From UHGV virus genome UHGV-0196339: a DNA stretch of 35,119 nt; one strand, written 5' to 3'. The position numbers and the translations under genes were made by a program. The notes beneath the pieces were generated by a model, which worked only from the letters and a program-made list of their open reading frames with translations, was not told the DNA's origin and did not search any database. Of this stretch, positions 10-18,248 are shown in pieces. The first letter of the stretch is position 1. Every line of letters starts with the position of its first letter. Source of the stretch: a virus.

Positions 10-477
10 TTATTGTTTAATGGCGTTTTCTATCCATGTCGCCAAATTGTTCTTGATATCGCTATAAGCGTCGTTAAAGTTAGGTTCATATACGAGTGGT
101 TTAATTACTCGATCGCCTCGCTTAAATGTAAATTGGTCGAAAGGATTCGGTCCTTTTGTCCCATAGCCGTTACGAGGGCATTTCAGTCGATGAATATAAA
201 TACCCACCACAGCCTTACCCTCTTTCCAGGCTCTTTCGATCTCATACTTGACCCATGGGCGATTAGCCGTTTGACTCCCGATCAGTACTACTAAGCAGGA
301 TTTGCCATTTAAGCTCTGATTAATCCAATTCTTCACGCCCTGCTCAGTTCGTTTAATTTGTTCCCAAGTATTTGGGCTGACCGGTTCATCCCCCTCCAGC
401 ACTCCCATGTTACGAATCTGCTGTACCCGCATAACATCGTTATCAAAGTGAAAGCTGTAAAATACCTTACGTTTCAT
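10..477 (-). CDS. thsB: Thoeris ThsB, TIR-domain protein
   Basis: 155 aa. N-terminal RKVFYSFHFDND, LVVLIGSQTANRPWVKYEI and KGPNPFD blocks match the ThsB TIR family. ATG lies 2 nt after the thsA stop, with an AGGAGG SD inside the thsA 3' end. AT-rich. Confidence 0.88.
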   Translation of the reverse strand: MKRKVFYSFHFDNDVMRVQQIRNMGVLEGDEPVSPNTWEQIKRTEQGVKNWINQSLNGKSCLVVLIGSQTANRPWVKYEIERAWKEGKAVVGIYIHRLKCPRNGYGTKGPNPFDQFTFKRGDRVIKPLVYEPNFNDAYSDIKNNLATWIENAIKQ

Positions 478-479
478 AT

Positions 480-1946
480 CTAACCTCCTAGTTTCTTTAA
501 AATTTCTAAAACTTTCATTTCGATATTTGCCCGATTAGCAGAGAGATCTGCAAGCTGAGCAACTTCCTTTTCCAACCAAGGGTACCGGACAAAATGTTTA
601 CTTGGATCCGTCAGCATCTCGTCAGCTAGTTCCTTGGCCATATAACCAGTGACGCCAAGTGGAAGCACGACAACCCCTGTTTCCTGAGCAATTTGAAACT
701 CCCTTCGGACCCCATCAGCATTAACGATTCGACCATCATGGAGTTTATTCCCAAAAAGGAATATAGCGATTCCAGAAAGACCAATCATACGCTGCCGATA
801 TTCGTCCCATAGCTCGCTCAGGGCTTTATCGTTTGATGAGTGTTGAGGGAATGGCCGCATGATAAGTTGCTCTTCTGAGTACTTATCAGGCTTAGAATAA
901 ATGGCTTCAAGAGCTCCGTTGATGACCGCACTACCAATACCCCATCCAAACCCATTGACAACTCGATAGCCATTCTTCACCAAAGATGACGAAAGTATGT
1001 GTACAAAGTTTAGTGCTTCCTGTTTGTCCCAAGCGCCATACTCTTCTGCACTACCAGATATAAATATGGTCTTCTTGAGGAAGCGACTCTCAATCTCTTT
1101 CAATATAAGTGGAATATCATCGTACTCGTTTACTAATACAGCCTGAATGCCAAAACGGAGCAAATCGCGAATATGATGTTCTTGCCTACGCTGCCTATAC
1201 ATAGCGCCAGCTTCATCTTCATTTCCTTGCGGCAGAGAGGGTTCCTTACGAAGAAAGCAGTAGTGTCTACGACGATGCTTCTCCGGAACATGCAATCGGC
1301 TCAATATGTAATCAAGATTAGGATCAGTAAAACTGAAGCCAATAAATAAGAATGTCTTAGAAATCAAATCTCCACTCAATGCTGTAACAAACCCCTCATG
1401 GGTCTTGTAGTACTGCTCATACTGAGCTTTATAAAGTATGGCGTCACCTGGCGAGCTAACATCACCATGCATTTTGTAAACAACAGCATCTCGTTTAGGA
1501 CGAGTGGAAATAAGATCATCGGTTCTGCGTTTAATATCTGCGACACGGTAGTTTTCTTTGAGACTATCTTCAATCAAAGTGTCATAGTTGGTTGTCCAAT
1601 AAGTTCTAATGGGTAGTCTAGCAAGGATTTTATGGGCTTCGGAAGGTTCCGCTTGCTCCGAGAATTCCTCTAGGATTTTTCTAGCTAAACCAGTTGAGCT
1701 GTTGTTCTTGTTGACATGGTATTGTGCAACCGAAATTAAGTCGTGCTCTAGCTCAACAGAAAGGCCTAATTCTTCAGCAATTTCACGCAGCAGTTCACTC
1801 CAATTAACGAAGCCGCTGGTTCTAGATAGGCCCGCACCAGCAAAAACGGCGGCAACCCCTTCTTCGAGATCCTTCACATAAGTCCTGATAAAAGCTTCAA
1901 CTTCAGCCGAAAACTGAACACTCATATTTTTAGACAATCCGGTCAA
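480..1946 (-). CDS. thsA: Thoeris ThsA, SIR2 (NADase) + SLOG domain protein
   Basis: 488 aa. SIR2 motifs FAGAGLS, TTNYD, YKMHGD, FIGFSFTDPNLDYILSR. C-terminal SLOG-like region (FISGSAEEYG, GFGWGIGS). Operon partner of thsB. Confidence 0.9.
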   Translation of the reverse strand: MTGLSKNMSVQFSAEVEAFIRTYVKDLEEGVAAVFAGAGLSRTSGFVNWSELLREIAEELGLSVELEHDLISVAQYHVNKNNSSTGLARKILEEFSEQAEPSEAHKILARLPIRTYWTTNYDTLIEDSLKENYRVADIKRRTDDLISTRPKRDAVVYKMHGDVSSPGDAILYKAQYEQYYKTHEGFVTALSGDLISKTFLFIGFSFTDPNLDYILSRLHVPEKHRRRHYCFLRKEPSLPQGNEDEAGAMYRQRRQEHHIRDLLRFGIQAVLVNEYDDIPLILKEIESRFLKKTIFISGSAEEYGAWDKQEALNFVHILSSSLVKNGYRVVNGFGWGIGSAVINGALEAIYSKPDKYSEEQLIMRPFPQHSSNDKALSELWDEYRQRMIGLSGIAIFLFGNKLHDGRIVNADGVRREFQIAQETGVVVLPLGVTGYMAKELADEMLTDPSKHFVRYPWLEKEVAQLADLSANRANIEMKVLEILKKLGG

Positions 1947-4098: not shown

Positions 4099-5100
4099 TT
4101 ACCCTCTATTATCAAAAGGATTCAATTCAACAGCAGCCTCTAAATGACCTGGAGCAAAATGCGCATAACGCATAGTCATTTTTATATCGCTATGCCCCAG
4201 TATTTTTTGCAACACAAGAATATTTCCGCCCCGCATCATAAAATGACTGGCAAACGTGTGACGTAGCACATGAGTTAATTGCCCATCAGGAAGCTCGATC
4301 TTCGCTCTCTTAATTGCAGCGTCAAAAGCCTCATAACATGGTGAAAATAGCGCTCCTCGTTTTTTAGGAAGCATAGCCTGCAATTGAGGTGAAATAGGTA
4401 CAGTGCGGTTCTTCTTTCCTTTAGTTTTAACAAATGTGATTCGACCGGGCAGTACTTGAGATTGCTTTAATCCTTCTGCTTCACTCCACCGAGCACCAGT
4501 CGCAAGCCCAATACGGACAACAACCCCCAAATCTTTATTCCGTGACTCATCACACGAAATCAGAAGGCGTTCAATCTCATCTACATACAGAAACGCCAGT
4601 TCCTTTTCTTCCTCACGAAACTTGCGAATACCAGTCAGAGGGTTTTCACCAGACCACTCCCCAAGGCGCTTCAGTTCGGCAAAAACAGCATGTAGATATG
4701 ACTGCTCGCGATTAACGGTTGCTTCACTAAGTTTTTTCTTCCCCTTGGGATTCCATTCTCCTGATAGCCTTCTTTCCCGATAAGTAGCAAACATATTTTT
4801 GTCAAACTGAGAAGCAAATGGATCTCCCAGCCTAGAACAAATCGCCTCAAGTTTGACTTTGCGCTCTGCACCAGAGGACAAGGTTTTACCGTACATCTCA
4901 AACCAACGAGCAATCAACTCAGAAAGACGAGGACCAGAACCATCTTGAAACTCGTCTCCAACTCTACTATTCATTAAACGGCGCTCATAAGAGAGCGCCT
5001 CACTTTTTGTCGCAAACTGTTTACGAATGCGTTTTCCCGATGCCCCGTAGGGATAACATTCGCAAAGCCATTTACCTGATGGAATCTTACGAACCGACAT
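4099..5100 (-). CDS. int: Tyrosine recombinase / phage integrase
   Basis: 333 aa. C-terminal catalytic region with HVLRHTFAS, GHSDIKMTMRYAH (R-H-R-Y family). Adjacent to the tRNA-derived att core. Confidence 0.95.
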   Translation of the reverse strand: MSVRKIPSGKWLCECYPYGASGKRIRKQFATKSEALSYERRLMNSRVGDEFQDGSGPRLSELIARWFEMYGKTLSSGAERKVKLEAICSRLGDPFASQFDKNMFATYRERRLSGEWNPKGKKKLSEATVNREQSYLHAVFAELKRLGEWSGENPLTGIRKFREEEKELAFLYVDEIERLLISCDESRNKDLGVVVRIGLATGARWSEAEGLKQSQVLPGRITFVKTKGKKNRTVPISPQLQAMLPKKRGALFSPCYEAFDAAIKRAKIELPDGQLTHVLRHTFASHFMMRGGNILVLQKILGHSDIKMTMRYAHFAPGHLEAAVELNPFDNRG

Positions 5101-5105
5101 TTTAG

Positions 5106-5453
5106 TTACTTATCACATAAATCAAATGCAGCCTTAGTGACATCCCCCAGATTCTTTTTTAACCCTGGGGCGGCATCATTATCTAGCCAAAATGGATTAT
5201 TGTTATCTAACGGTAACGCACCAAATGTTTTACCTTTTATTCGAGCCAAACCTGTAAGCGCATATAACTTATTATCGTCAAAATTCATCACATAAGGATT
5301 ACCATCAAGACACTGTAATTGAACCTCATCAGTATTAAATGGCCATACCCCATTGAAACTCTCACGTTCAATAGTTTTAAAAGGCATTGCGACGGCAGAA
5401 AAAGAAAACATAAATAAAAAAGTAACTAATAGTTGAATCTTTTTTACTTTCAT
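5106..5453 (-). CDS. Hypothetical secreted (signal-peptide) protein, lysogeny-operon cargo
   Basis: 115 aa. N-terminal MKVKKIQLLVTFLFMFSFSAVA signal peptide, two Cys in the mature part. GAGGT SD. 5-nt gap to int, AT-rich. Confidence 0.6.
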   Translation of the reverse strand: MKVKKIQLLVTFLFMFSFSAVAMPFKTIERESFNGVWPFNTDEVQLQCLDGNPYVMNFDDNKLYALTGLARIKGKTFGALPLDNNNPFWLDNDAAPGLKKNLGDVTKAAFDLCDK

Positions 5454-5482
5454 ATCATTACCTCAATTTAGCTCAAGTAAGA

Positions 5483-6133
5483 TTACAAATTAAAAAACAT
5501 CCTAGAAATGGCACCGCCTACCAAAACCCCTACGCAGATAAAGAATATTATTTCTTTTGGATAAAGTCGGATTAATTCTGAAGCACGAAGTCGGACTTCT
5601 GGTAAGGTCGAATTCTCTGTGTTGCTTGATACCGATTGTTGCTCTAACCACGACAATGCAGACTGTAACTGAGAACGAGTAAGATCGTTTAAACGTCCTG
5701 TACCGAAATTGATATGGCAATACCGCAGAAGTTTTTGTCGAAGTCCACAGTCTTCACTGTTACGTAGTAATAAACTTACAAGAGTCTTACAGGCATCATG
5801 ATCTTTACATCGCTCAAGCATTGCATGCAGAAAACTCTCCGCTGTTTTATATTGATTTACTGTCATATCATCAATACCAGCTACACCAATCTCCGCATGT
5901 ACTTTTTGCCAAATAATAAACGCTTCAGTATTGCTAGCTTCTGCAATAGCAGCAACCAAGCTATTTAGCTCCTTACGCTGAGCCTTAAGCAAAGGGCGAT
6001 CGTCATCATCATTATTCGAAGGGATTGCGATATTGACGATATGAGAACCATCATATCGATCTATCTGAATATTCTTTTCGTGAAAATCACGCCCAGCAAC
6101 GCGATTGTTTGAACCGTTTGAGTTGACGGCCAT
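5483..6133 (-). CDS. Hypothetical tail-anchored membrane protein, lysogeny-operon cargo
   Basis: 216 aa. C-terminal hydrophobic helix IIFFICVGVLVGGAISRMFF. N-terminus SNNRVAGRDFHE repeats the repressor C-terminal motif. GGGAGG SD, 15-nt gap to the repressor stop. Confidence 0.6.
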   Translation of the reverse strand: MAVNSNGSNNRVAGRDFHEKNIQIDRYDGSHIVNIAIPSNNDDDDRPLLKAQRKELNSLVAAIAEASNTEAFIIWQKVHAEIGVAGIDDMTVNQYKTAESFLHAMLERCKDHDACKTLVSLLLRNSEDCGLRQKLLRYCHINFGTGRLNDLTRSQLQSALSWLEQQSVSSNTENSTLPEVRLRASELIRLYPKEIIFFICVGVLVGGAISRMFFNL

Positions 6134-6148
6134 GTCACCTCCCTACTA

Positions 6149-6553
6149 TCACCTACCCTTAGTTTCGTTATAGTCACGACCAGCGATACGGTTATTACCA
6201 CCAGAAATATTTAACTCACGTCCTGATGGCTGAGTTTCCTTTTCACTGACCGCACCTTTTAAAGCCCCGATCACCGCGTTTTTCACATCTAACGAAGCTG
6301 CTCGAAAGCGAGTAATCAACTCCTGCTCATCATCGTTATAAGTTTCAGGTGAGTGAATTCCCAACACAACATACTGAACATCAAGGCCAAAACGAGACAG
6401 CGCTGCCAAATACGCAGCATCAGGAAAGCTATCTCCTTTCTCATATCTAAGCTGAGTTAGCTTTTTGACTCCACCAATGTCGCTCATAGCAACTTGACTA
6501 AGCCCCAATCTTTCCCTTTCCTCACGCAACCGCTGACCAATATCATTTTTCAT
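6149..6553 (-). CDS. XRE-family HTH repressor (cI-like immunity repressor)
   Basis: 134 aa. N-terminal HTH (LGLSQVAMSDIGGVKKLTQLRYEKG). Divergent from the early operon. First gene of the repressor-cargo-int operon. Confidence 0.75.
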   Translation of the reverse strand: MKNDIGQRLREERERLGLSQVAMSDIGGVKKLTQLRYEKGDSFPDAAYLAALSRFGLDVQYVVLGIHSPETYNDDEQELITRFRAASLDVKNAVIGALKGAVSEKETQPSGRELNISGGNNRIAGRDYNETKGR

Positions 6554-7643: not shown

Positions 7644-7734
7644 GAAACCAGAACATGCACACACAAAAAAACCGCTTGCCATGCCTCAATAGGTCAGGTT
7701 ACATTTCCGCTGCACCTCATAAAACGGGTGCCGG

Positions 7735-7920
7735 GATTCTCAACCCGACACAGAGCAAAGCGCATAACCGCGCAAGCGGTTTTTTTGTGCGTACTGTATT
7801 GCCACGTCTTTTTCGCGTCAGAATTATGGCGGGGCGTACGGGGCCGACTTTGGTCGGGCCGGATTCTTTGCTCTCCGGTGTTGAGAACCCTGTACGTCTC
7901 GCCACCCCGAGATTCTCAAC
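7735..7920. repeat. Three copies of GATTCTCAAC-like motif (two direct, one inverted) flanking a terminator
   Basis: GATTCTCAACCCGACACAGAGCAAAG at 7735-7760. Its imperfect reverse complement at 7866-7889. GATTCTCAAC again at 7911-7920. Confidence 0.4.
7766..7787 (+). terminator. Rho-independent terminator within the early region
   Basis: AACCGC-gcaa-GCGGTT followed by TTTTTT. Confidence 0.5.
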
Positions 7921-8640: not shown

Positions 8641-11406
8641 ATGACGGCAGAGTACATCAGGGACTGGCAACAACCGCGCCACGCAGTGGGGCGTGAAGGA
8701 ACGGGGATCCCCGCTCCTGAATCCGCGCTTTCCTCCTGGCTGGATGCCTACCGGGCAGAGAACGAGCGCCGCCAGGAAATGGCTGATGCGGCGTTCTCCG
8801 CCACGCCGCTGGGCAACCTGATTAATAAAAGCCTGGACGCACAGGAAAAACAGGACAAAACCATCACACTGGCAGGAGACGCCAGAAAACAGGCACGTGG
8901 CGCGGTGGATGAAGCCATGGCCTCGCTGCGCCTGCTGCCGACCTATCTGCGCGATCCGCTTATTCGCCACCTCTCCTTCCTGCGCAAAAAACAGGAAGCC
9001 GATCGTCAGAAAGGAAAAAACGCCAGGCAGGCAGAACGCTATGCGCGTGGGACCCTGCGCAAAATATTCGAACGTCTGGAGCGCACCGATCACCGCTGGC
9101 TGACACCGGGTTATCGCTCCCTTGCCGGACGCGAACGCCTGGACAATTTGCTTTACCTGCCGCAGCTCAACAAACACCAGATACAGACGCTGGCCACCAT
9201 GACGGCGGCGATGTTCAGCAGCACCTTCGAAAAACTCTGCGATGGCTTTGGCGCGACCGATGGCGAGCTGACCATGGATGTAACCCTGAAGGCGTATCAG
9301 ATGCTGGCCCGCATAGCGTTACACCTGCACGCCATGCCTCCACATTATGACGCACTGACAACAGACAAAGACCGGAGGAACGAACCGGACACGGAGCTGC
9401 TGCCGGGCGCAATCCTTCGCCTGACCTGTGCGGAATGGTGGAAACGCAAACTGTGGCTGTTACGTTGCGAGTGGCGGGAAGAACAACTCCGCGCCGCCTG
9501 TCTGGTTTCCAGAAAGACATCACCCTATCTGAGCCAGGACGCGTTAAGCGAGTTTCGCGCACAGCGCGAGAAAACACGCGATTTCCTGAAAAGTTTCATG
9601 CTGGAAAACGAAGACGGGTTCACGATTGATCTCGAGACAGTGTATTACGCGGGAGTAAGTAACCCGGTTCACCGTAAGGCAGAAATGATGGCCACCATGA
9701 AGGGGCTGGAACTTCTGGCCGAAGCCCGTGGCGACAGAGCGGTGTTTCTGACTGTCACCTGCCCGTCAAAATACCACGCAACAACGGAGAACGGTCATCC
9801 GAATCCCAAATGGAACGGGGCCACTATGCGCGACTCCAGCGATTACCTGGTTAACACGTTTTTTGCAGCGGTCCGCAAAAAACTGAACCGCGACGGCCTG
9901 CGCTGGTATGGCATCCGCACGGTGGAGCCTCATCATGACGGCACGGTGCACTGGCACATGATGGTTTTTGCTCATCCTGACGAGATTGAAACCATCGTGT
10001 CCCACGTCTGCGATATTGCCATTCAGGAAGACCGCCACGAGCTGGGCGATGACATAACTCCGCGTTTTAAGGCGGAGTACGTCGACGGCTCAAAAGGCAC
10101 ACCAACCAGCTATATCGCGACCTACATCGGAAAAAACCTGGACAGCCGCGCCGTGGATGGCATCGACCCGAAAACGGGCAAACCACGCGTTGACCACGAA
10201 ACCGGAAAATCAATGGCCGAGAGCGTGGAGCGCGCCATCGGCTGGGCGCGCCTTCACCGGGTCCGCCAGTTCCAGTTCTTTGGCATCCCCTCCCGTCAGG
10301 TGTGGCGTGAACTGCGCCGCCTTGCCAGCCAGATGGCACGCAACCCGGAAGGCCCGCAACGGCTGAAGGATGACGCAATGGATGCGGTACTCGCTGCCGC
10401 TGATGCCGGGTGTTTTGCCTCCTACATTGAAAAACAGGGTGGCGTACTTGTTCCACGCAAGGACTACCTGATTCGCACCGCCTACGACCTCGCAGATGAG
10501 CTGAACGATTACGGCGAACAGAGCGTACAGATTTACGGGATCTGGTCACCACTCATCGGGGAATCCTCCCGTGTGTGCACGCACCCGGATAACTGGAAGC
10601 TGGTAAGACGTAAACCGGAAGCGGAAGACAGCACCCGCGAAAATGATTTTGACCTTCAGGGCGGCCCTGCCGCCCCTTGGACTCGTGGCAATAACTGTCC
10701 CCGTGTACAGGAAACGGACAACAACGGGACAGAACAGCAGGAAGAACGGCCAGCACTGTGGCCGCAGCTTCCTGACGGCGTTGATGTGGATGAATGGATG
10801 CGCTCACTGAAACGGCACGAACGCCGGGCGCTGATGCGTTCGCTTCGTGACAAACAGGCAAAAAACAGCAGTGATGAAATGCAGAGCTGGACACAGAGCC
10901 GCAAACAGCAGCGGCCTTTGCCTGATAACCACGAATTACTCGCTAAAGAATGGCGGGAATCTGCCGAATCTCTCGGCCTGCATATCGGTGAACAGCAGAT
11001 GCAGCACCTGTTACGAGGCGGCAGTCTGTACGTTGACGGCAGCATCATTGCACCGCAGGGATTTGAAATTGTACGCAAACCAGATACCCGACCGGACAGC
11101 CGAATCACGCAGCTCTGGCAGCGCCTGAGCCGTAATCACGGCGTAAACAGCACGGAAATCCGCCATAACCCGGTTTCCAGCTATCTGAAACAGCTCGGGG
11201 CATCAGACCCTGAAGCCGCTGCACGCCTGGCATCCACAATTCAGCAGGACCAGAGCACCATGAAAACTCCCGTTACCGTGCTTTCTGACATGCTGCGCGC
11301 CATCCGTGACGCAGAGCACGCACAGAGAATCAATGAAACCACTGAACGCGCACGTCACAAGGCGGGTCTGTTGCAGGACAAAGGCAATAGCGAGAAGAAA
11401 AAATAA
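8641..11406 (+). CDS. A: Gene A-type rolling-circle replication initiation endonuclease
   Basis: 921 aa. TVTCPSKYH, VEPHHDGTVHWHMMVF (HUH motif) and YIATYIGKN (catalytic Tyr motif) match P2 gpA. Long low-complexity C-terminal extension. Confidence 0.9.
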   Translation: MTAEYIRDWQQPRHAVGREGTGIPAPESALSSWLDAYRAENERRQEMADAAFSATPLGNLINKSLDAQEKQDKTITLAGDARKQARGAVDEAMASLRLLPTYLRDPLIRHLSFLRKKQEADRQKGKNARQAERYARGTLRKIFERLERTDHRWLTPGYRSLAGRERLDNLLYLPQLNKHQIQTLATMTAAMFSSTFEKLCDGFGATDGELTMDVTLKAYQMLARIALHLHAMPPHYDALTTDKDRRNEPDTELLPGAILRLTCAEWWKRKLWLLRCEWREEQLRAACLVSRKTSPYLSQDALSEFRAQREKTRDFLKSFMLENEDGFTIDLETVYYAGVSNPVHRKAEMMATMKGLELLAEARGDRAVFLTVTCPSKYHATTENGHPNPKWNGATMRDSSDYLVNTFFAAVRKKLNRDGLRWYGIRTVEPHHDGTVHWHMMVFAHPDEIETIVSHVCDIAIQEDRHELGDDITPRFKAEYVDGSKGTPTSYIATYIGKNLDSRAVDGIDPKTGKPRVDHETGKSMAESVERAIGWARLHRVRQFQFFGIPSRQVWRELRRLASQMARNPEGPQRLKDDAMDAVLAAADAGCFASYIEKQGGVLVPRKDYLIRTAYDLADELNDYGEQSVQIYGIWSPLIGESSRVCTHPDNWKLVRRKPEAEDSTRENDFDLQGGPAAPWTRGNNCPRVQETDNNGTEQQEERPALWPQLPDGVDVDEWMRSLKRHERRALMRSLRDKQAKNSSDEMQSWTQSRKQQRPLPDNHELLAKEWRESAESLGLHIGEQQMQHLLRGGSLYVDGSIIAPQGFEIVRKPDTRPDSRITQLWQRLSRNHGVNSTEIRHNPVSSYLKQLGASDPEAAARLASTIQQDQSTMKTPVTVLSDMLRAIRDAEHAQRINETTERARHKAGLLQDKGNSEKKK

Positions 11407-11506
11407 CCAAGAAAGAAATCATCAATTGTATGAAGGTAGAGTTTAGACATGGTAAGGACGTTCCATGAGGCACACTGTAATTTCATATAGTATTCCTCTT
11501 CCCTGT

Positions 11507-11534
11507 TTGATAAAAAAGTGCAATACTATAAATA
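11507..11534 (+). promoter_or_regulatory. Candidate sigma70 promoter for the ATPase-protease cassette
   Basis: TTGATA (11507-11512), about 16 nt, then TAAATA/TATAAA around 11527-11534, in an AT-rich leader upstream of the ATG at 11587. Confidence 0.3.
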
Positions 11535-11586
11535 GTCCAGTTAAATGCTTTTTCAATTCACTTAAAATCAAGAGGTTACAGTTAAG

Positions 11587-12708
11587 ATGGGCGACTTAGG
11601 TGGTATTCAGTCAGATTTAGCCCAACTAGTTAGACTGGTAATAACTGAACAGTATGATGACGTTCGGTTATATGTCGCTCGCTTGGTGCGTAAATATCGG
11701 GAAACTATGCCTGCTCTATCCGAGCAGCTTGATCTTTATCTACGAAATAAACCGCAAAAGCCTGCACAAAGCCTGCGTAAGGTTACCGCACCAAAACAAG
11801 CGCTGCCTCAAACCATGCCTGTGGACGAGGAGTCAAGGCTTACCTTGCTTAAAGCACCAAATGAAAAGATTGTGAGCAAACCTCTACTGTCCAGTCAGAT
11901 AGAAGACTCACTGGATCAAATTATTCTTGAGCGGAAGCACATCGATCGCCTCAAGACTCTCGGCTTACAACCAACACGCTCTGCCATTTTTGTTGGCCCT
12001 CCGGGTGTAGGTAAAACACTTACGGCAAGCTGGTTAGCTCAGAAATTAGGGGTTCCTTTTTACGTTCTTGATTTAACGGCAGTAATGAGCAGCTATCTGG
12101 GCAAAAGCGGAAATAACCTTCGGGCAGCTCTAGATTTTGCGAAGAAAGGGCCGTGCGTTCTTCTGTTAGATGAAATTGATTCAATCGCCAAAAAGAGAAG
12201 TGATGATTCTGATGTTGGAGAATTAAAAAGACTTGTTACAGTGATACTCCAGGAGGTTGACGAATGGCCGTCTTCTAGTTTGCTACTTGCTGCAACTAAC
12301 TTCGCTGAGTTGATTGATCCAGCACTATGGAGACGTTTTGATTTAGTGCTCAATTTTGAGAAACCAGATAGCGAAAGTATTAAAGAAGCAATTAAACGCT
12401 TTTCAGGTCCCGACTACGCGATTTTTGCACGTTGGATAGATCTACTGGCTATTATGTTCAAAAATGAATCTTTTAGTAATATTGAGCGTTCTATCAACAA
12501 ATTCCGACGTTCGGTCGCTTTAGGTATTTCCTCAGATGAAGAGTTGATTGGGTCGTTCATTAAAGATGGTTTATCAGAATTAGACAGGAATGAACGTAAA
12601 GAAATTGCAGTTACTCTAAAAAGAAATTCTAAATTATCCCAGCATGCCATATCAGACTTAACCGGAGTCAGTAGGGATACAATTAGAAAATACAGTCAAA
12701 AAATGTAA
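11587..12708 (+). CDS. AAA+ ATPase with C-terminal HTH-like segment (IetA-like)
   Basis: 373 aa. Walker A GPPGVGKT, Walker B LLLDEID, sensor-1 ATN, Arg finger region WRRFD. C-terminal LSQHAISDLTGVSRDTIRKY resembles an HTH. AT-rich. Confidence 0.8.
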   Translation: MGDLGGIQSDLAQLVRLVITEQYDDVRLYVARLVRKYRETMPALSEQLDLYLRNKPQKPAQSLRKVTAPKQALPQTMPVDEESRLTLLKAPNEKIVSKPLLSSQIEDSLDQIILERKHIDRLKTLGLQPTRSAIFVGPPGVGKTLTASWLAQKLGVPFYVLDLTAVMSSYLGKSGNNLRAALDFAKKGPCVLLLDEIDSIAKKRSDDSDVGELKRLVTVILQEVDEWPSSSLLLAATNFAELIDPALWRRFDLVLNFEKPDSESIKEAIKRFSGPDYAIFARWIDLLAIMFKNESFSNIERSINKFRRSVALGISSDEELIGSFIKDGLSELDRNERKEIAVTLKRNSKLSQHAISDLTGVSRDTIRKYSQKM

Positions 12709-12731
12709 TACAGCATAGATAAGGAGTATGT

Positions 12732-14957
12732 ATGGCGAAAACTAATTTTCTGATTGGACGCGGCGAATTATTAACCAGCGATATTCCTGGTCCTAAAAGA
12801 GTGCCCGGAAAAGCTGAGGTTTATTCTCTTTACGAATCGAAACAACGTTTATTGCCGCAAATTGCATCTACTATAGAAAATTTTGATGATTTACCCAGTC
12901 AGGCATGTCCTTATGATTATGCTGTGGCTAAGTTGACGTTGAATCCGAGCTATATTGCACGCTCTTTTTTTCCTGCAAAAATGCTTAAGTCTACCGGGTT
13001 AACGTCTATTGGCAGCAGGACGGTAAAAATTACGCCTCAAAGCTGGAAGCGAAAAGTTACTGTGTCAGAAGTAACTACGACACAAATGTTTGTTGCTGGT
13101 AAAAGAGAATCCTTCAAAGAGTTACCTCATTGGGTGTCAGGACTCAAAGAGTTTTCTGACGAAGCGATTGATTTTGCACGCATAGAACGGTTCGATGCCT
13201 ATTTACCCGAAGAGCGTATTATTACCATTGGTGAGCAGGATTCTTCGTATTTTGAGGTTGGTGTTCATTTACTGCCAGATAATGAACAAGACTTGGTTCA
13301 GCAACAATTTGTTCAGTTTGCATCAAATTTGAACATCAAAGTACATACTTCATTAGCTTTTACCGCTGGTACATTATGGTTCGTGCCAATCCAGGCCGAT
13401 AGAATTACTATTAGTAAGCTTGCGAAATTTACATTTGTACGAGTAATAAGACCGGTTCCAAGATTGCGTGGGATTAGACCAATACAAAGGAACTACGGTC
13501 CTTTAGCTCAGTGTAAATTGCCTGCTGAGGGCCCCGTATCTTCAGAAATAAAAGTTGCGATTCTTGATGGCGGTTTACCATCAGAGCACGCTATATCGCC
13601 ATGGTTAAAATCCTATAGAGTTTTGGACGATCATGCAGAGGATGATCCAGACGGTTTAGAACATGGTTTAGCTGTGTCTTCAGCCTTTTTATTTGGACCA
13701 ATAAGTAATAAATCGGAAGCGAAAAGACCATACTCTTATATTGATAACTTAAGAGTTTTGGACAACAAGACCTGCCAAGAAGATCCGCTGGAACTATATC
13801 GAAATTTGGGCTTTATTGAAGAGGTATTGTTGTCTCGCCAGTATCAGTTTATCAATCTAAGTTTAGGTCCAGACCTACCAATTGAAGATACGGAAGTTCA
13901 TGCATGGACTTCCGTTATTGATGATTTGTTAAGTGATGGTGAAACATTAATGACTGTTGCTGTTGGCAACAATGGAGAAATGGATCGCAAGTCTGGTAAT
14001 GCAAGAATTCAAGTACCAGCCGATTGCGTTAATGCTCTTGCTGTTGGTGCTTGTGATACAGTTAATGATACGGAATGGAAACGAGCACCATATAGCGCCA
14101 TTGGGCCAGGCAGAAGTCCTGGCGTGATGAAACCGGATTTAGTTGCGTTTGGTGGTGACACAGACGAGTACTTTCATGTTTTAGGTAAAGGTAAGAAGCC
14201 TGTAATCATACCCCAGCTAGGAACAAGCTTTGCCTCTCCTTACGCCTTACGAGCAGCTGTTGGTGTTCGGGCAATTTTAGGGAACGATTTGAGCCTACTA
14301 GCAATCAAAGCTTTGTTAATTCATGCGTCAAAACAGCTTGATCATCCTTGTACAGAAGTTGGCTGGGGAAAACTTCCTGAAGACTTGAACGACATTATAG
14401 TCAGCCCTGATGGTGTTGCCCGTATCGTCTACCAAGGTGAATTGAAACCAGGAAAATACTTACGCGCTCCTCTTCCAATACCTGAAGGTGGCTTGAAAGG
14501 TAGAATAAACTTAGCGGCAACTTTCTGTTATGCAACAACCACTGATCCACAAGACCCAGCTTCCTATACAAAAGCTGGTTTGGAAGTGACATTCCGGCCA
14601 AATGATTCAAAAATCAAAGACGGAAAACAAAATGCTGAAACCAAGGGATTCTTTGAACTGGCCAAATATTCAACTGAAAGTGAGCGACGTTCTGACATGG
14701 GCAAATGGGAGACCGTCTTACATAATTCGAAGAACATGCTCGGTTCAACTCTAAAAAATCCTGTATTTGACATTCATTATAACGCTCGTGAGGCCGGTGC
14801 AAGCATAGCCAGCCATAAGGCAGAAAAAATCAAGTATGCTCTTATAATTACCATTAAGGCATCAAAGCACCAAGACCTGTATAACGAAATTTTACGTACT
14901 TATAATCAGGTGCTCGTGCCAATTCAACCGCAAACATCAATTCCTATTCGTTCGTAA
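12732..14957 (+). CDS. S8-family subtilisin-like serine peptidase with N- and C-terminal extensions (IetS-like)
   Basis: 741 aa. Subtilase motifs: Asp in VAILDGG, His in LEHGLAV, oxyanion Asn in VGNNG, Ser in GTSFASP. AAGGAG SD 5 nt upstream, 23 nt after the ATPase stop. Confidence 0.85.
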   Translation: MAKTNFLIGRGELLTSDIPGPKRVPGKAEVYSLYESKQRLLPQIASTIENFDDLPSQACPYDYAVAKLTLNPSYIARSFFPAKMLKSTGLTSIGSRTVKITPQSWKRKVTVSEVTTTQMFVAGKRESFKELPHWVSGLKEFSDEAIDFARIERFDAYLPEERIITIGEQDSSYFEVGVHLLPDNEQDLVQQQFVQFASNLNIKVHTSLAFTAGTLWFVPIQADRITISKLAKFTFVRVIRPVPRLRGIRPIQRNYGPLAQCKLPAEGPVSSEIKVAILDGGLPSEHAISPWLKSYRVLDDHAEDDPDGLEHGLAVSSAFLFGPISNKSEAKRPYSYIDNLRVLDNKTCQEDPLELYRNLGFIEEVLLSRQYQFINLSLGPDLPIEDTEVHAWTSVIDDLLSDGETLMTVAVGNNGEMDRKSGNARIQVPADCVNALAVGACDTVNDTEWKRAPYSAIGPGRSPGVMKPDLVAFGGDTDEYFHVLGKGKKPVIIPQLGTSFASPYALRAAVGVRAILGNDLSLLAIKALLIHASKQLDHPCTEVGWGKLPEDLNDIIVSPDGVARIVYQGELKPGKYLRAPLPIPEGGLKGRINLAATFCYATTTDPQDPASYTKAGLEVTFRPNDSKIKDGKQNAETKGFFELAKYSTESERRSDMGKWETVLHNSKNMLGSTLKNPVFDIHYNAREAGASIASHKAEKIKYALIITIKASKHQDLYNEILRTYNQVLVPIQPQTSIPIRS

Positions 14958-14970
14958 TCCTTCAAGACAT

Positions 14971-15000
14971 AATGCCCCTCAATTTGAGGGGCATTTCTTT
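14971..15000 (+). terminator. Rho-independent terminator after the S8 peptidase gene
   Basis: Perfect palindrome AATGCCCCTCAA/TTGAGGGGCATT followed by TCTTT. Confidence 0.6.
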
Positions 15001-15097
15001 GCACAAAAGTGCACAAATTTGCACAATTTTTTTGAACGACTTTTTGCCCTTCCGGCCCGCATGGCGGCTGGATCGGTCAAGGATCCGTGCGTGCACA
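15000..15097. repeat. Phased TGCACAA repeats in the cos-proximal intergenic region
   Basis: TGCACAA at about 15001, 15011 and 15021 (10-bp phasing) and again near 15090, in the region where P2-like phages carry cos. Confidence 0.35.
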
Positions 15098-15450
15098 AAA
15101 AAACGCGCTTTTTCTGCGCGCAGGTGACGGGGGAACAGCCCGCGTTTCAGGGGGGAAATAGCATCCCCTGAACGATGTCGCAGCGACACAACAGAATGGC
15201 TGTATTTCTCACGCTGAGCGTGAAAAAGACGTGAGGGCTTTTGATTTGATGGGGTGAAAGGTAAGGCCGTCAAAATCGCACTGAGACGGCGAGAACATGC
15301 AGTCAACGCGGTGGGATTGCGTAAGAGTCTGACTGTCGATGATGGCAATCAGCAGGAAAGCATCGTGAAATTATCTGACTGATACAGGAGCTGGAGAGTC
15401 GGGGCATAAATTTTTTATGCCCCGGCGAAGCAGCAGACAAGCGAAGCGCG

Positions 15451-16497
15451 TCAGGATGTGGGCTGGGTGTCTAACAGTGCGTAAGGGTTAAAGCGGATCA
15501 CCTCTTCGCCAAGCCAGTCATTGATGTGCTTCATGGCCTCCATGACGGGCATCAGCTCGTTAATTGCGTAAACCCGTGCGGCCTTCTCCACATCACCAAA
15601 CGCACTTTTTTCGCCCGGCATCGCCCCCATCAGTTGCGGCGGAACGCGGTGCGCAGCCAGCACATCATCACGGGATGCCGCCTTAACATTCATGAACTCA
15701 TCCTTTGCGGTGATCTGCTGGAACGGCAAAATTTGCACCCCCTCTTTGCCCCCGTTGGGCGCATGGATGAGCACGTTTTTAAACGCACCACCTCCACGTG
15801 CCCCCTGTAACGTTTCTTTCAGGGAGTCCATGCTTTCGCGGTTTACCTGCGCTGCTCCGATGTAGATGATGCACCCGGCGTGGGATCCATTGTCGTAATA
15901 CAGTTTTCTGAACATGTCCGCCGAATGAGACAGGCTGGCCGAGAGTAATGCGCCAAGATATTCCGGCATGCCGTAAATTTCCTGGTTAATGTCCGGATTC
16001 ATCAGGTGGCACACTTTGCCAGGGCGAAACTGAAACGCGTCTTTGCCATCCTGCACATACCACCATGATTCAAGATCGCTTCCGCGTCGCATGTATTTCG
16101 CCAGTGCGTGCCGTAATTTAAGTGGTTCGCCGAGCATATTGCTTCGAAGCTCAAGGAATGCGTTACCGAACACAAACCAGTCCAGCGCCAGCGCCGAGAA
16201 ATCCTGCCGGGAAAGCAGCGGGTGCGGGATGTAGCAACCAAGTAATACATTGCGCTTAAAGTAAAGCGCAGACTGATGCCAGGACGTTTGCCGGGCAGCT
16301 CTTGCCAGACCGTACCAGTCCACCGGGGTTTCATACCACCGCCCGTTATCAGCACAGTACATATTGTCCAGCAGGTCATGCCCGGTCAGGCGATAAGGAC
16401 CATCAAATGTGAATGCACTGAGCGATGATTCTTTCCTGAGCGCATCAGCGAGATCAATGCGTGAACTCATGCGCACTTTTTTATTTTTTCTGCTCAT
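15451..16497 (-). CDS. Q: Portal protein (P2 gpQ-like)
   Basis: 348 aa, downstream of and ATGA-overlapping the terminase gene on the minus strand. Position and size as P2 Q. Possible alternative start at 16470. Confidence 0.85.
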   Translation of the reverse strand: MSRKNKKVRMSSRIDLADALRKESSLSAFTFDGPYRLTGHDLLDNMYCADNGRWYETPVDWYGLARAARQTSWHQSALYFKRNVLLGCYIPHPLLSRQDFSALALDWFVFGNAFLELRSNMLGEPLKLRHALAKYMRRGSDLESWWYVQDGKDAFQFRPGKVCHLMNPDINQEIYGMPEYLGALLSASLSHSADMFRKLYYDNGSHAGCIIYIGAAQVNRESMDSLKETLQGARGGGAFKNVLIHAPNGGKEGVQILPFQQITAKDEFMNVKAASRDDVLAAHRVPPQLMGAMPGEKSAFGDVEKAARVYAINELMPVMEAMKHINDWLGEEVIRFNPYALLDTQPTS

Positions 16498-18248
16498 CAG
16501 AACTCCATAACCGTGAAACGCTCGTTTTCTCCTTCGCCGCCAATCGGTTCGTTAATGACAGCAAGCATGGTTGCCCACGCAAGGTCGCCGTGGCTGATCC
16601 CCCTCGCGCGGTCCGTTTCGTAAGTGATAAAGCCGCCCGGTGTTTTCACCTTACGCACGGCGTTAAAGGCCGCGACCAGCTCGCGTTCGGCGCGATCGTA
16701 TTCCCACCGCCCGGCACGCATTATTTGCAGCATTTTCAGTACCAGCGACCGTTTTGATGACAGCGTGAAGGTGTACGGAATAGCAGCAGGGAAAAACCGT
16801 TTCACTATCTGATAAACAGCCTCCCCGTTCCCGCCCGTCACATCAATGCCGATGTGTTCCACGTTGTAGCGACACGTGAACTCTTCAATGACTCTGGCCT
16901 GTTCTTCAAACTCCAGCCCCTGAACGCGTCGCGTCTCCACCGTTCGAAAACGGCCACCAGGAACAGCCGGAGGAACCACCACGGACACAGCGCCGCTGTC
17001 GCCGTTGCCACTGCTGCCGTTTGCGTCATACCCAATCCATACCGGACGATTTCCCATCGGGCGGGGAGCAAAAGGTTTCCAGTCTTTCCAGTCGTCGTAT
17101 CCGTCAACACCGCAGCCAATCAGGATATTCAGGTTAAATGCCGATTCCCCTTCGCGGACAAACTCACACATATAGAGATTGAGGAACTCGTCTTCGGTGT
17201 TTTCATCACGAATTTCGTCGATATCGGTGTGTTTCCAGCCGTGATTAACCACATCTTCCAGCGTGACAATTTGCCGCCACGTCCGGTCAGGGCAGATAAG
17301 CCCGTTATGCAGCGTTTTCCAGTCCACAGAAAAACGCTGGCGTTTATGCGAGGCCTTTTTCTCGTTCCAGCGGTCGCCGTTCCAGTAGGCGTATGCCTCG
17401 TGCGTTTCGGTGGATGGCGTGGAGAAGTAGGTGCGCCGCAGTCCGCTGAGGGTTGCCATAGCGCCAGCCACCTTGCGCAGTTCAGCAAAGCGACTGACCC
17501 AGAAAAATTCATCAAAATAAAAATTGCCCGTATAGGACTGTGCCGACGCAGCAGAAGTGCCGAGAAAATGCAGCTCTGCGCCGTTGGAGAGGATGATTTT
17601 ATCGCCCCCTTTCAGCTCCACATCAACTTCAGCCGCGGCCTTCTGAATAATGCTTTTAAACTGGAACGCCTGACGACGCGACGCAGACAAAAAAATCTGG
17701 TTACGCTGGTAAGGTTGCGCCACATCGTCACGCAGCGCCATCAGCAGAGCTTCCTGTGCAAAATACCAGGTCGCCCCAATCTGTCGGGATTTCAGGATCA
17801 TCCTGTTACGTATCCCGGCTTCCCTGCAAAGGGTCAGGGAGTCAAACCAGCCCCGCTGATGCCACTCCAGCCTGCTGATGATTTTTTCCCGCAGTGCGGC
17901 AATCTGTTCCGGCGTGAAATGATTTTTGAGTTTTTTCGCCCGGCCTTTCTTTCCTGCGGTCATCACATCCGGCTGGCCATCATGCAGCTTTTTAAGCTGC
18001 CGGGTCAGCAGGTCTATTTCCTTAAAGTCACCGCCTGTTTTATTCTGTTTTTCAGTAAGCTGGATGAGGCGCGCATCGATGGACTGCGTAACACGCTGCA
18101 CGGGTGGTGTTTCATCCCACTGGTCGCGTTTTTTCCACGCATAAATCGTGTTCGGGTTTATTCCCATCAGACGTGATATTTCTGCGGGCGGATACCCCTG
18201 CCAGTAAAGTTGCCGCGCACGCTGGCGCACAAAAGCGTCCTGAATCAT
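16497..18248 (-). CDS. P: Terminase large (ATPase) subunit (P2 gpP-like)
   Basis: 583 aa, GGGGGAG SD. Divergent from the capsid operon as in P2. Confidence 0.88.
   Translation of the reverse strand: MIQDAFVRQRARQLYWQGYPPAEISRLMGINPNTIYAWKKRDQWDETPPVQRVTQSIDARLIQLTEKQNKTGGDFKEIDLLTRQLKKLHDGQPDVMTAGKKGRAKKLKNHFTPEQIAALREKIISRLEWHQRGWFDSLTLCREAGIRNRMILKSRQIGATWYFAQEALLMALRDDVAQPYQRNQIFLSASRRQAFQFKSIIQKAAAEVDVELKGGDKIILSNGAELHFLGTSAASAQSYTGNFYFDEFFWVSRFAELRKVAGAMATLSGLRRTYFSTPSTETHEAYAYWNGDRWNEKKASHKRQRFSVDWKTLHNGLICPDRTWRQIVTLEDVVNHGWKHTDIDEIRDENTEDEFLNLYMCEFVREGESAFNLNILIGCGVDGYDDWKDWKPFAPRPMGNRPVWIGYDANGSSGNGDSGAVSVVVPPAVPGGRFRTVETRRVQGLEFEEQARVIEEFTCRYNVEHIGIDVTGGNGEAVYQIVKRFFPAAIPYTFTLSSKRSLVLKMLQIMRAGRWEYDRAERELVAAFNAVRKVKTPGGFITYETDRARGISHGDLAWATMLAVINEPIGGEGENERFTVMEF

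Follow-up and report, generated by a model that had tools for sequence, protein, structure and literature searches.

An ietAS ATPase–protease cassette as accessory cargo at the gpA–gpQ locus of a P88-like Escherichia coli prophage

The UHGV virus genome UHGV-0196339 (35,119 nt, hereafter the window) carries an AT-rich insert of 3.6 kb that separates replication gene A from the portal gene, and, judged by its sequence, this insert is an intact IetAS, an ATPase-plus-protease toxin–antitoxin and anti-phage pair. The host element is a P88-like (P2-family, Peduoviridae) E. coli prophage with the cassette as accessory cargo at gpA–gpQ. We consider it probable that the ietA-ietS operon works as a toxin–antitoxin or abortive-infection unit, in which IetA would restrain IetS until a phage trigger appears. 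The cassette itself is already known, as both proteins have been tabulated at this hotspot before. The locus thus adds little new; it bears out the transport of IetAS among enterobacteria by P2-like prophages, with gpA–gpQ as the carrying site. It is also a convenient native E. coli example of IetAS, in which the two genes come with a conserved leader and a terminator of their own.

The two genes are co-oriented and adjoin on the plus strand. ietA (11587..12708, 373 aa) encodes a classical-clade AAA+ ATPase and ietS (12732..14957, 741 aa) encodes a cytoplasmic S8 subtilase; the gap between them is 23 nt, and an AGGAG Shine-Dalgarno sequence lies 6 nt 5′ of the ietS ATG. The single terminator is located 3′ of ietS. 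It is an intrinsic-terminator-like hairpin with a U-rich tail (14971..15000, plus strand; stem at 14971-14995), which was not picked up by the consensus scan of 11200-15600 and was then confirmed by RNA folding. Its perfect 11-bp stem has a dG of -19.4 kcal/mol and is followed by UUUCUUU; with a z-score of -4.9, none of 200 shuffled sequences folds equally well. The hairpin marks the right edge of the cargo, where homology to P88 restarts (~14993), and on the left the similarity to P88 stops near the end of gene A, at about its stop codon. The GC content is 0.38-0.46 over 11.5-15 kb versus 0.52-0.60 in both flanks. The AT-rich two-gene unit and the strong terminator of the preliminary description are therefore both confirmed.

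Gene A (8641..11406), upstream of the cassette, matches Phage_GPA with an E-value of 2e-129. Downstream follow the portal (15451..16497) and terminase (16497..18248) genes on the minus strand, as annotated in an E. coli record of 99.6% identity. The cassette is a variable insert adjacent to cos, bounded by gene A on one side and portal gene Q on the other, and P88 has other genes at this site. This is the cargo hotspot of P2-like phages, where P2 has old and tin (PMC9122126), and the location at the tin/old site had been recognized correctly in the preliminary description. The same arrangement of gene A, cassette and portal recurs in P2-like prophages of Serratia, Klebsiella and Salmonella.

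Within E. coli the cassette is found at an identity of at least 99.5% in 43 of 5,426 complete genomes, and is missing from ~1,100 others with the same right flank. In the collection of sequenced phages no record contains it, and the matches there are limited to the cos-proximal right flank. One could regard the insert as inert hitch-hiking cargo that has lost its function; ietS is indeed broken by an IS5-family insertion in one E. coli genome and another genome has a truncated copy. However, both reading frames are intact here with all catalytic residues kept, the 43 genomes share the cassette nearly unchanged and the leader is constrained. Moreover, were the toxin active, an orphaned or broken antitoxin would be lethal, and we consider functional loss highly improbable. 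A role as the head-maturation protease or ATPase of the phage itself was rejected, since the prophage already has a GPO-family capsid scaffolding gene; the absence of the cassette from P88 and from the right-flank-sharing E. coli genomes also contradicts this role.

Gao et al. reportedly described ietAS as an anti-phage system in 2020. The cassette is like the ietAS of PADLOC and NCBIfam in being a two-gene operon of an AAA+ ATPase and an S8 subtilase with full-length profile matches and intact catalytic residues. IetA matches PADLOC PDLC02196 at 1e-77 (aa 9-372, profile positions 5-370 of 374) and Pfam AAA (PF00004) at 2.6e-30 (aa 134-258; 106 bits versus the cut-off of 21.2), and IetS matches PADLOC PDLC02197 at 1.2e-51 (aa 36-726, positions 38-733 of 749) and Peptidase_S8 (PF00082) at 7.7e-19 (aa 271-546, positions 2-288 of 288). 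The hidden Markov models for AAA, Peptidase_S8 and defence systems thus all gave significant matches, in agreement with the preliminary assignment of gene 1 to classical AAA+ ATPases, of gene 2 to subtilases and of the pair to ietAS. The best-scoring NCBIfam families are IteA (NF042959) and IteS (NF042956), with scores far below the equivalog cut-offs (223.3 versus 510 bits and 136.6 versus 900 bits, respectively), which, by the measure of those models, makes the pair a diverged subtype.

IetA has the same sequence as WP_000502620, and a single substitution, N358T, separates IetS from WP_001140702. Both accessions are listed by Rousset et al. (2022) in Table S5 as “AAA/HTH_50 + Peptidase_S8, WP_000502620 + WP_001140702” at the P2 hotspot and are labelled ietAS (PMC9122126), so the novelty implied by the preliminary description was too high. 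In the same work ietAS ranks 7th at gpA–gpQ with 400 occurrences (PMC9122126). The representative of that rank is of a different subtype, with 43% (IetA) and 33% (IetS) identity to the cassette proteins and with its domains listed in the reverse order. In the main text and supplements of PMC9122126 we did not find ietAS among the hotspot systems tested there, and the literature searched yielded no experiment on the exact cassette variant.

The IetA protein is composed of an N-terminal helical bundle (aa 4-53), a disordered linker (57-84), the AAA core (103-260), the lid (262-312) and a C-terminal helical/HTH region (317-372). A Pfam scan of the N-terminus alone gave no match at E<=10. The Walker A/B, sensor-1 and Arg residues are intact, with K143, D195/E196, N238 and R249/R250 invariant in 24 homologues, as is the HTH at 350-368. 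The best Foldseek matches of the AF2 model (pLDDT 74) are p97 D2, FIGL-1, Mpa and FtsH, and the best PDB sequence matches are Cdc48/p97; IetA is thus a classical-clade AAA ATPase of the Cdc48/FtsH/proteasomal type. It differs from p97 D2, FtsH and Mpa, whose folds its core matches, in having a single AAA ring and an HTH tail. The HTH-like C-terminal segment (12601..12705, plus strand, aa 339-373) contains the motif LSQHxISDxTGVSRDTIRK, invariant in the 24 homologues. Its Pfam matches, to many HTH families, are sub-threshold (E about 2e-3), which qualifies the HTH-like segment noticed earlier; in Table S5 of Rousset et al. the C-terminal domain is called HTH_50 (PMC9122126).

In IetS the catalytic triad is complete, as had been described: D279, H311 and S499, together with N413, are the same in all of 40 homologues (35-66% identity), and an alignment to subtilisin E locates D279, H311 and N413. 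The S8 catalytic domain (PF00082; 13542..14369, plus strand, aa 271-546) is preceded by an N-terminal region (12732..13496, plus strand, aa 1-255) and followed by a C-terminal beta-sandwich domain (14394..14921, plus strand, aa ~555-730), and the same 40 homologues share invariant residues in both flanks. The N-terminal flank comprises about 270 aa and the C-terminal one about 195 aa, which corrects the 250 and 230 aa given in the preliminary description. Nor are they unusual, as was claimed there: they fall inside the IetS profile (36-726 of 741), and their conservation extends to hundreds of homologues of ~740 aa. The same holds for the HTH of the ATPase, which lies inside the IetA profile (9-372 of 373).

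The N-terminal region corresponds to residues ~1-255 of those ~740-aa homologues that are among 557 representative clusters, and it is the fastest-evolving part of the protein. It contains, in this order, a conserved GxGExL motif, two beta-alpha-beta-beta-alpha-beta units (aa 63-156 and 173-241) and an Arg/Pro-rich linker. The two units are modelled as ferredoxin-like and similar to subtilase prodomains, and they directly precede the S8 domain, as prodomain/I9-like units do. This predicted likeness is at the level of the fold, and the comparison is with subtilases that retain their prodomains, such as Clostridium CspB/CspA and PCSK9. Unlike those prodomains, the IetS N-terminus comprises two units and about 60 further residues, and it has no sequence match to Inhibitor_I9 (PF05922). 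Pfam scans of the flanks alone (aa 1-260 and 541-741, E<=10) gave no match either. The AF2 model of IetS is poor (pLDDT 53, below 50 in the catalytic core) because the input alignment was shallow, with 30 sequences of at least 64% identity. PDB sequence searches found no structure of IetA or IetS, and for IetS they returned generic subtilisins alone, at E about 1e-4.

The leader of the cassette (11407..11586, plus strand) fills the space between the stop codon of gene A and the start of ietA, and its core (11474-11586, 113 nt) shows conservation across genera. This core shares 75-78% identity with the leaders in Serratia and Klebsiella, with only 36-43% identity at the third-codon positions of ietA in the same comparison. 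Conservation so far above synonymous-site identity indicates that the leader is under evolutionary constraint. Within it lies the inverted repeat TATAGTATTCCTCTT / AAGTGCAATACTATA (11486..11530), a putative operator, which recurs in the loci of Salmonella and Serratia and in part also in that of Klebsiella. The best promoter-like site, TTGATA-18-AATAGT at 11507-11536, overlaps this repeat. The sigma-70 consensus scan of 11200-15600 gave 7 promoter-like sites versus 7.2 expected, that is, chance level. The leader described as promoter-like is nevertheless conserved across genera, although the scan lends no support to any specific promoter.

[quoted passage not shown] We suggest that in the uninfected lysogen IetA acts as a hexameric Cdc48/FtsH-like protein remodeller and would use ATP to hold the cytoplasmic subtilase IetS inactive; the p97/Cdc48, Mpa and FtsH matches together with the invariant Walker A/B, sensor-1 and Arg residues point to the remodeller function. 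The target of IetA might be the tandem prodomain-like modules of the IetS N-terminus, or the conserved Arg/Pro linker that leads into the catalytic domain. Through its C-terminal HTH, IetA probably binds the inverted repeat of the leader and so would autoregulate the operon, as is suggested by the invariance of the HTH and by the conservation of the leader and its repeat. With the infection by a competing phage a trigger would be supplied that blocks, diverts or outpaces IetA. The freed IetS would then degrade essential proteins of either host or phage, and the lysogen under attack would die or stall ahead of the replication of the invader.

The division into a toxic protease and a neutralizing ATPase is proposed for the cassette pair by analogy with its relatives. 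In the Mycoplasma mycoides pair A132/T133, whose proteins have the same architecture and are of comparable length (353 and 757 aa), deletion of the antitoxin is lethal and the toxin works in E. coli (PMC8562856); unlike the cassette, this pair is chromosomal, belongs to Mollicutes and has no phage context. The subtilase of SgiAT (S026/S025) from Salmonella genomic island 1 (SGI1) is likewise toxic, with the toxicity relieved by the ATPase (PMC5006074). The ietHAS system (Liu-DS4) has the same IetA and IetS core; its defence depends on protease activity, and attempts to clone ietA mutants failed (PMC13069673). ietHAS has, however, a third gene, ietH, for an essential SNF2-family helicase, whereas from gene A to the terminator the cassette has no more than its two genes.

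These observations bear on the possibility that the cassette encodes a split ATP-dependent protease, comparable to FtsH, Lon or the proteasome, in which IetA unfolds and feeds substrates and would be no antitoxin but an activator or a factor that confers specificity. The nearest relatives of IetA are protease-feeding unfoldases (proteasomal ATPases, FtsH, Cdc48), it has a pore-loop-like S-Y/L-L-G motif, and the two genes are tightly coupled. The motif reads Y170-L-G here and in close relatives and L-L-G in homologues below ~70% identity, and with Leu replacing Y170 in the more distant homologues substrate threading by IetA is not assured. An obligate activator would predict the opposite of what is seen in the homologues, where the lone protease is toxic and relieved by the ATPase (PMC5006074, PMC8562856) and ATPase mutants cannot be cloned (PMC13069673); besides, subtilases are not self-compartmentalised. 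We regard the split-protease arrangement as quite improbable.

That the cassette protects from phages is likewise proposed by analogy. IetAS homologues protect from phages (PMC13069673; bioRxiv 10.1101/2022.08.27.505566), and the gpA–gpQ locus has been validated as a reservoir of anti-phage systems (PMC9122126). In Bacillus cereus, IetAS acts by abortive infection triggered by SPbeta YosG, and the expression of one phage protein kills the cell (bioRxiv 10.1101/2022.08.27.505566). The same features argue against a module that serves mainly for addiction, in which post-segregational killing stabilizes the prophage or related elements are excluded and defence is at most a side effect. For such a role speaks that IetAS was first described on Agrobacterium pTiC58 as a plasmid stability and incompatibility module, as cited in PMC13069673 and PMC5006074, and that SgiAT keeps SGI1 from being lost (PMC5006074). 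Both reside on mobile elements, as the cassette does, with the gene of the AAA-ATPase antitoxin upstream of that of the subtilase toxin; they differ from it in belonging to a plasmid and an integrative mobilisable element, not a prophage, and in having been studied for element maintenance and not for phage defence. The limited protection given on its own by the E. coli ietAS of ECOR52 (Wu et al.), which may belong to another subtype, also fits addiction; the source of this system was sought among 44 carriers of the cassette and not found. We note that addiction and defence are compatible with each other, and a mainly addictive function appears rather unlikely to us.

The abortive-infection mechanism suggested above leaves room for a zymogen-like IetS, which we put forward tentatively and hold to be doubtful as it stands. 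The prodomain-like N-terminal modules would then be the inhibitor and at the same time the element of specificity or sensing; IetA would keep this plug engaged and repress its own operon, and a phage trigger would disrupt the interaction and set the protease free. Specific mutants and binding assays can be designed from the domain map, the invariant residues and the leader repeat, and, if true, such activation would give IetAS a concrete, testable mechanism.

The cassette is an IetAS pair. Two co-oriented reading frames, ietA (11587..12708, + strand, 373 aa) and ietS (12732..14957, + strand, 741 aa), are present where the preliminary description placed a two-gene unit. The gap between them is 23 nt and includes an AGGAG Shine-Dalgarno sequence placed 6 nt ahead of the ietS start codon. 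The segment is AT-rich as described (GC 0.38-0.46 vs 0.52-0.60 on either side). The strong terminator also proposed is found directly past the ietS stop codon as a hairpin (14971-14995) with an 11-bp perfect stem followed by UUUCUUU; its folding energy is -19.4 kcal/mol (z-score -4.9), and 0 of 200 shuffles fold as well.

All profiles proposed for checking the pair, AAA, Peptidase_S8 and defence models, give matches. Pfam AAA (PF00004) matches IetA residues 134-258 (2.6e-30) and Peptidase_S8 (PF00082) matches IetS residues 271-546 (7.7e-19) with the whole profile covered. The PADLOC models match end to end, IetA (PDLC02196) over aa 9-372 (1e-77) and IetS (PDLC02197) over aa 36-726 (1.2e-51), and the top NCBIfam matches are anti-phage IteA and IteS, which bears out the IetAS reading. 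Both NCBIfam scores fall well short of the equivalog thresholds (223 vs 510 bits for IteA, 137 vs 900 for IteS), which makes the pair a diverged subtype. In PHROGs, each protein already has a full-length family, labelled 'unknown function'. IetA is indeed a classical AAA+ ATPase, with invariant K143 (Walker A), D195/E196 (Walker B), N238 (sensor 1) and R249/R250. The catalytic triad of IetS is complete, as claimed: D279, H311 and S499, together with N413, are invariant in 30 close homologues and 40 distant ones (35-66% identity). Such conservation contradicts the explanation that the cassette is inert cargo.

Upstream of the cassette lies gene A, encoding the Phage_GPA replication protein (8641..11406, Phage_GPA 2e-129). 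Downstream of the cassette, on the - strand, portal and large-terminase genes are followed by P2-type capsid and lysis genes, as annotated in an E. coli record with 99.6% identity. The closest sequenced phages are P88-like Xuanwuvirus (Peduoviridae), which have only the cos-proximal right flank in common (window 14994-15450) and carry different genes at the cassette site. Similarity to P88 ends near the gene A stop and restarts where the 3' arm of the hairpin lies (~14993); therefore, the cargo spans ~11407-14995. As proposed, it occupies the gpA-gpQ hotspot, the site between replication gene A and portal gene Q that in P2 is occupied by old and tin (PMC9122126). The gene A product has 921 aa with the Phage_GPA domain confined to residues 179-503, and its long C-terminal part departs from the P88 replication protein near the 3' end, beside the cargo junction.

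The pair is already known, and the same proteins are in the literature at the same hotspot. The window IetA is identical to WP_000502620, and N358T is the only difference between IetS and WP_001140702; Table S5 of Rousset et al. 2022 (PMC9122126) gives 'AAA/HTH_50 + Peptidase_S8, WP_000502620 + WP_001140702' among the gpA-gpQ contents. The system is named ietAS there, at rank 7 in the hotspot with 400 occurrences; however, the printed rank-7 representative is a second subtype, 43% (IetA) and 33% (IetS) identical to the window. In E. coli the hotspot is used by two or more IetAS subtypes that are only distantly related, the second with its domain order listed in reverse, and some arrangements have StbA/Plasmid_stab_B or DUF3850 neighbours (PMC9122126 Table S5). 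Wu et al. located E. coli ietAS in prophages and found limited activity for the cloned ECOR52 copy on its own, and a porcine-ETEC survey reports ietAS in 35 strains.

According to the papers that cite its first description (PMC13069673, PMC5006074), IetAS of pTiC58 is a toxin-antitoxin system whose toxin is the protease and whose antitoxin is the ATPase. The subtilase of the SGI1 homologue SgiAT exerts its toxicity within 30 minutes, an effect countered by the ATPase (PMC5006074); Mycoplasma A132/T133 is likewise toxin-antitoxin and lethal if the antitoxin is deleted (PMC8562856). Phage defence by IetAS needs protease activity, and ietA mutants could not be made (PMC13069673). In B. cereus IetAS acts by abortive infection, and its toxicity is set off by expressing the SPbeta protein YosG alone (bioRxiv 10.1101/2022.08.27.505566). 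One rival explanation, that IetA would activate IetS within a split ATP-dependent protease, is contradicted by the toxicity data. Another, compatible with defence, is that the pair serves primarily for prophage addiction.

Demonstrated in these homologues are a toxic protease that the ATPase neutralises, the need for protease activity in defence, abortive infection and triggering by a single phage protein. The most likely mechanism is that IetA, probably hexameric, uses ATP to hold cytoplasmic IetS inactive, possibly via the prodomain-like N-terminus or linker of IetS. A factor of the incoming phage would disturb this restraint, and the freed IetS would cleave essential proteins, aborting the infection. 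The remodeller activity of IetA, the prodomain-like plug and the HTH/operator autoregulation we infer here. In line with the preliminary description, we found no paper resolving the mechanism in the literature searched; how IetAS works is the sole reason to return to the locus.

The features regarded as unusual in the preliminary description, an HTH on the ATPase and the protease extensions, are typical of the IetAS family. The IetS flanks of the S8 core measure ~270 aa (N) and ~195 aa (C), rather than 250 and 230 aa, and have no Pfam match up to an E-value of 10. They are conserved over their full length in 738-741-aa homologues across Gamma- and Betaproteobacteria and contain residues invariant family-wide. 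An exhaustive search with IetS residues 1-260 gave 557 representative clusters; among the best 150, the N-terminal region lies at residues ~1-255 in every full-length match (~725-766 aa). The predicted structure of IetS is poor overall (pLDDT 53) and confident only for residues 30-240. Residues 63-156 and 173-241 are modelled as two beta-alpha-beta-beta-alpha-beta units, whose resemblance to prodomains is modest, the ferredoxin-like fold being common. Residues 555-730 are predicted with moderate confidence as a beta-sandwich, and the C-terminal part matches GOLD, collagenase PPC and collagen-binding beta-sandwiches. The N-terminal region evolves fastest (mean identity 28% in the second unit vs 49% in the S8 core). 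In the linker an Arg/Pro pattern is kept: R237 never varies, and R240, P243 and R246 rarely do.

In the IetA model (pLDDT 74), an N-terminal bundle of helices (aa 4-53) and a disordered linker (57-84) precede the AAA core with lid, and the C-terminal region is helical. The nearest solved folds to IetA are the protein remodellers p97 (D2), FIGL-1, Mpa and FtsH. The pore loop reads Y-L-G in the window protein and L-L-G in more distant homologues. The C-terminal HTH-like segment falls within the IetA profiles, 24 homologues share its motif LSQHxISDxTGVSRDTIRK without variation, and a counterpart occurs in the 43%-identical subtype; in Pfam it gives many sub-threshold HTH matches and nothing more.

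The 113 nt upstream of ietA (window 11474-11586) are 75-78% identical to the Serratia and Klebsiella loci, whereas third-codon positions of ietA are just 36-43% identical. Across genera (homologous loci L003, L005 and L009, each at 5885-6000) leader identity is 75-85% vs 36-74% at synonymous sites of the adjacent gene. The leader described as promoter-like is conserved, although a consensus promoter scan does no better than chance (7 sites vs 7.2 expected). A conserved inverted repeat, ATATAGTATT...AATACTATA (window 11486-11530), overlaps the best promoter-like site and may serve as an operator bound by the IetA HTH. Together, the repeat and the invariant HTH suggest antitoxin-style autoregulation of the ietAS operon.

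The cassette is present at >=99.5% identity in 43 of 5,426 complete E. coli genomes, always on the chromosome, and an additional genome carries it at 84.7%. P2-like prophages of Serratia, Klebsiella and Salmonella carry the same subtype, flanked by gene A and the portal gene (84%, 73% and 95% IetA identity). In another Salmonella lineage (Salmonella enterica loci L007 and L008, 6001-9375; 69% IetA identity) it lies in a non-P2 island beside a DUF5710 gene and an integrase; hence, the cassette crosses from one type of mobile element to another. In E. coli E06 (H43, NZ_CM143910.1, 1650722-1655411) an IS5-like ISKpn26 element splits ietS and ietA is kept, and in an O111:H8 genome (H74, NZ_CP077515.1) a truncated copy retains the 3' 42% of the cassette. 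Both are natural toxin-inactivated cassettes.

Elsewhere in the prophage, two Rfam matches above gathering score lie in the early region upstream of gene A (+ strand): the isrK Hfq-binding RNA (7712-7786, 61.9 bits) and C4 antisense RNA (7822-7909, 77.6 bits). Between the integrase (4099-5100, - strand) and an HTH repressor-like gene (6149-6553) are a DUF2511 ORF (5106-5453, - strand) and a 216-aa ORF (5483-6133, - strand) with no Pfam or PADLOC match; this AT-rich region (5106-6133, GC 0.35-0.41) may be further accessory cargo. At the left window edge, in AT-rich DNA, a type I Thoeris pair (10-1946, - strand) consists of ThsB (TIR; 10..477, PADLOC ThsB1 3e-70) and ThsA (SIR2_2 + STALD/SLOG; 480..1946, PADLOC ThsA1 6.4e-203). 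It lies outside the integrase, and therefore a second defence system abuts the prophage.
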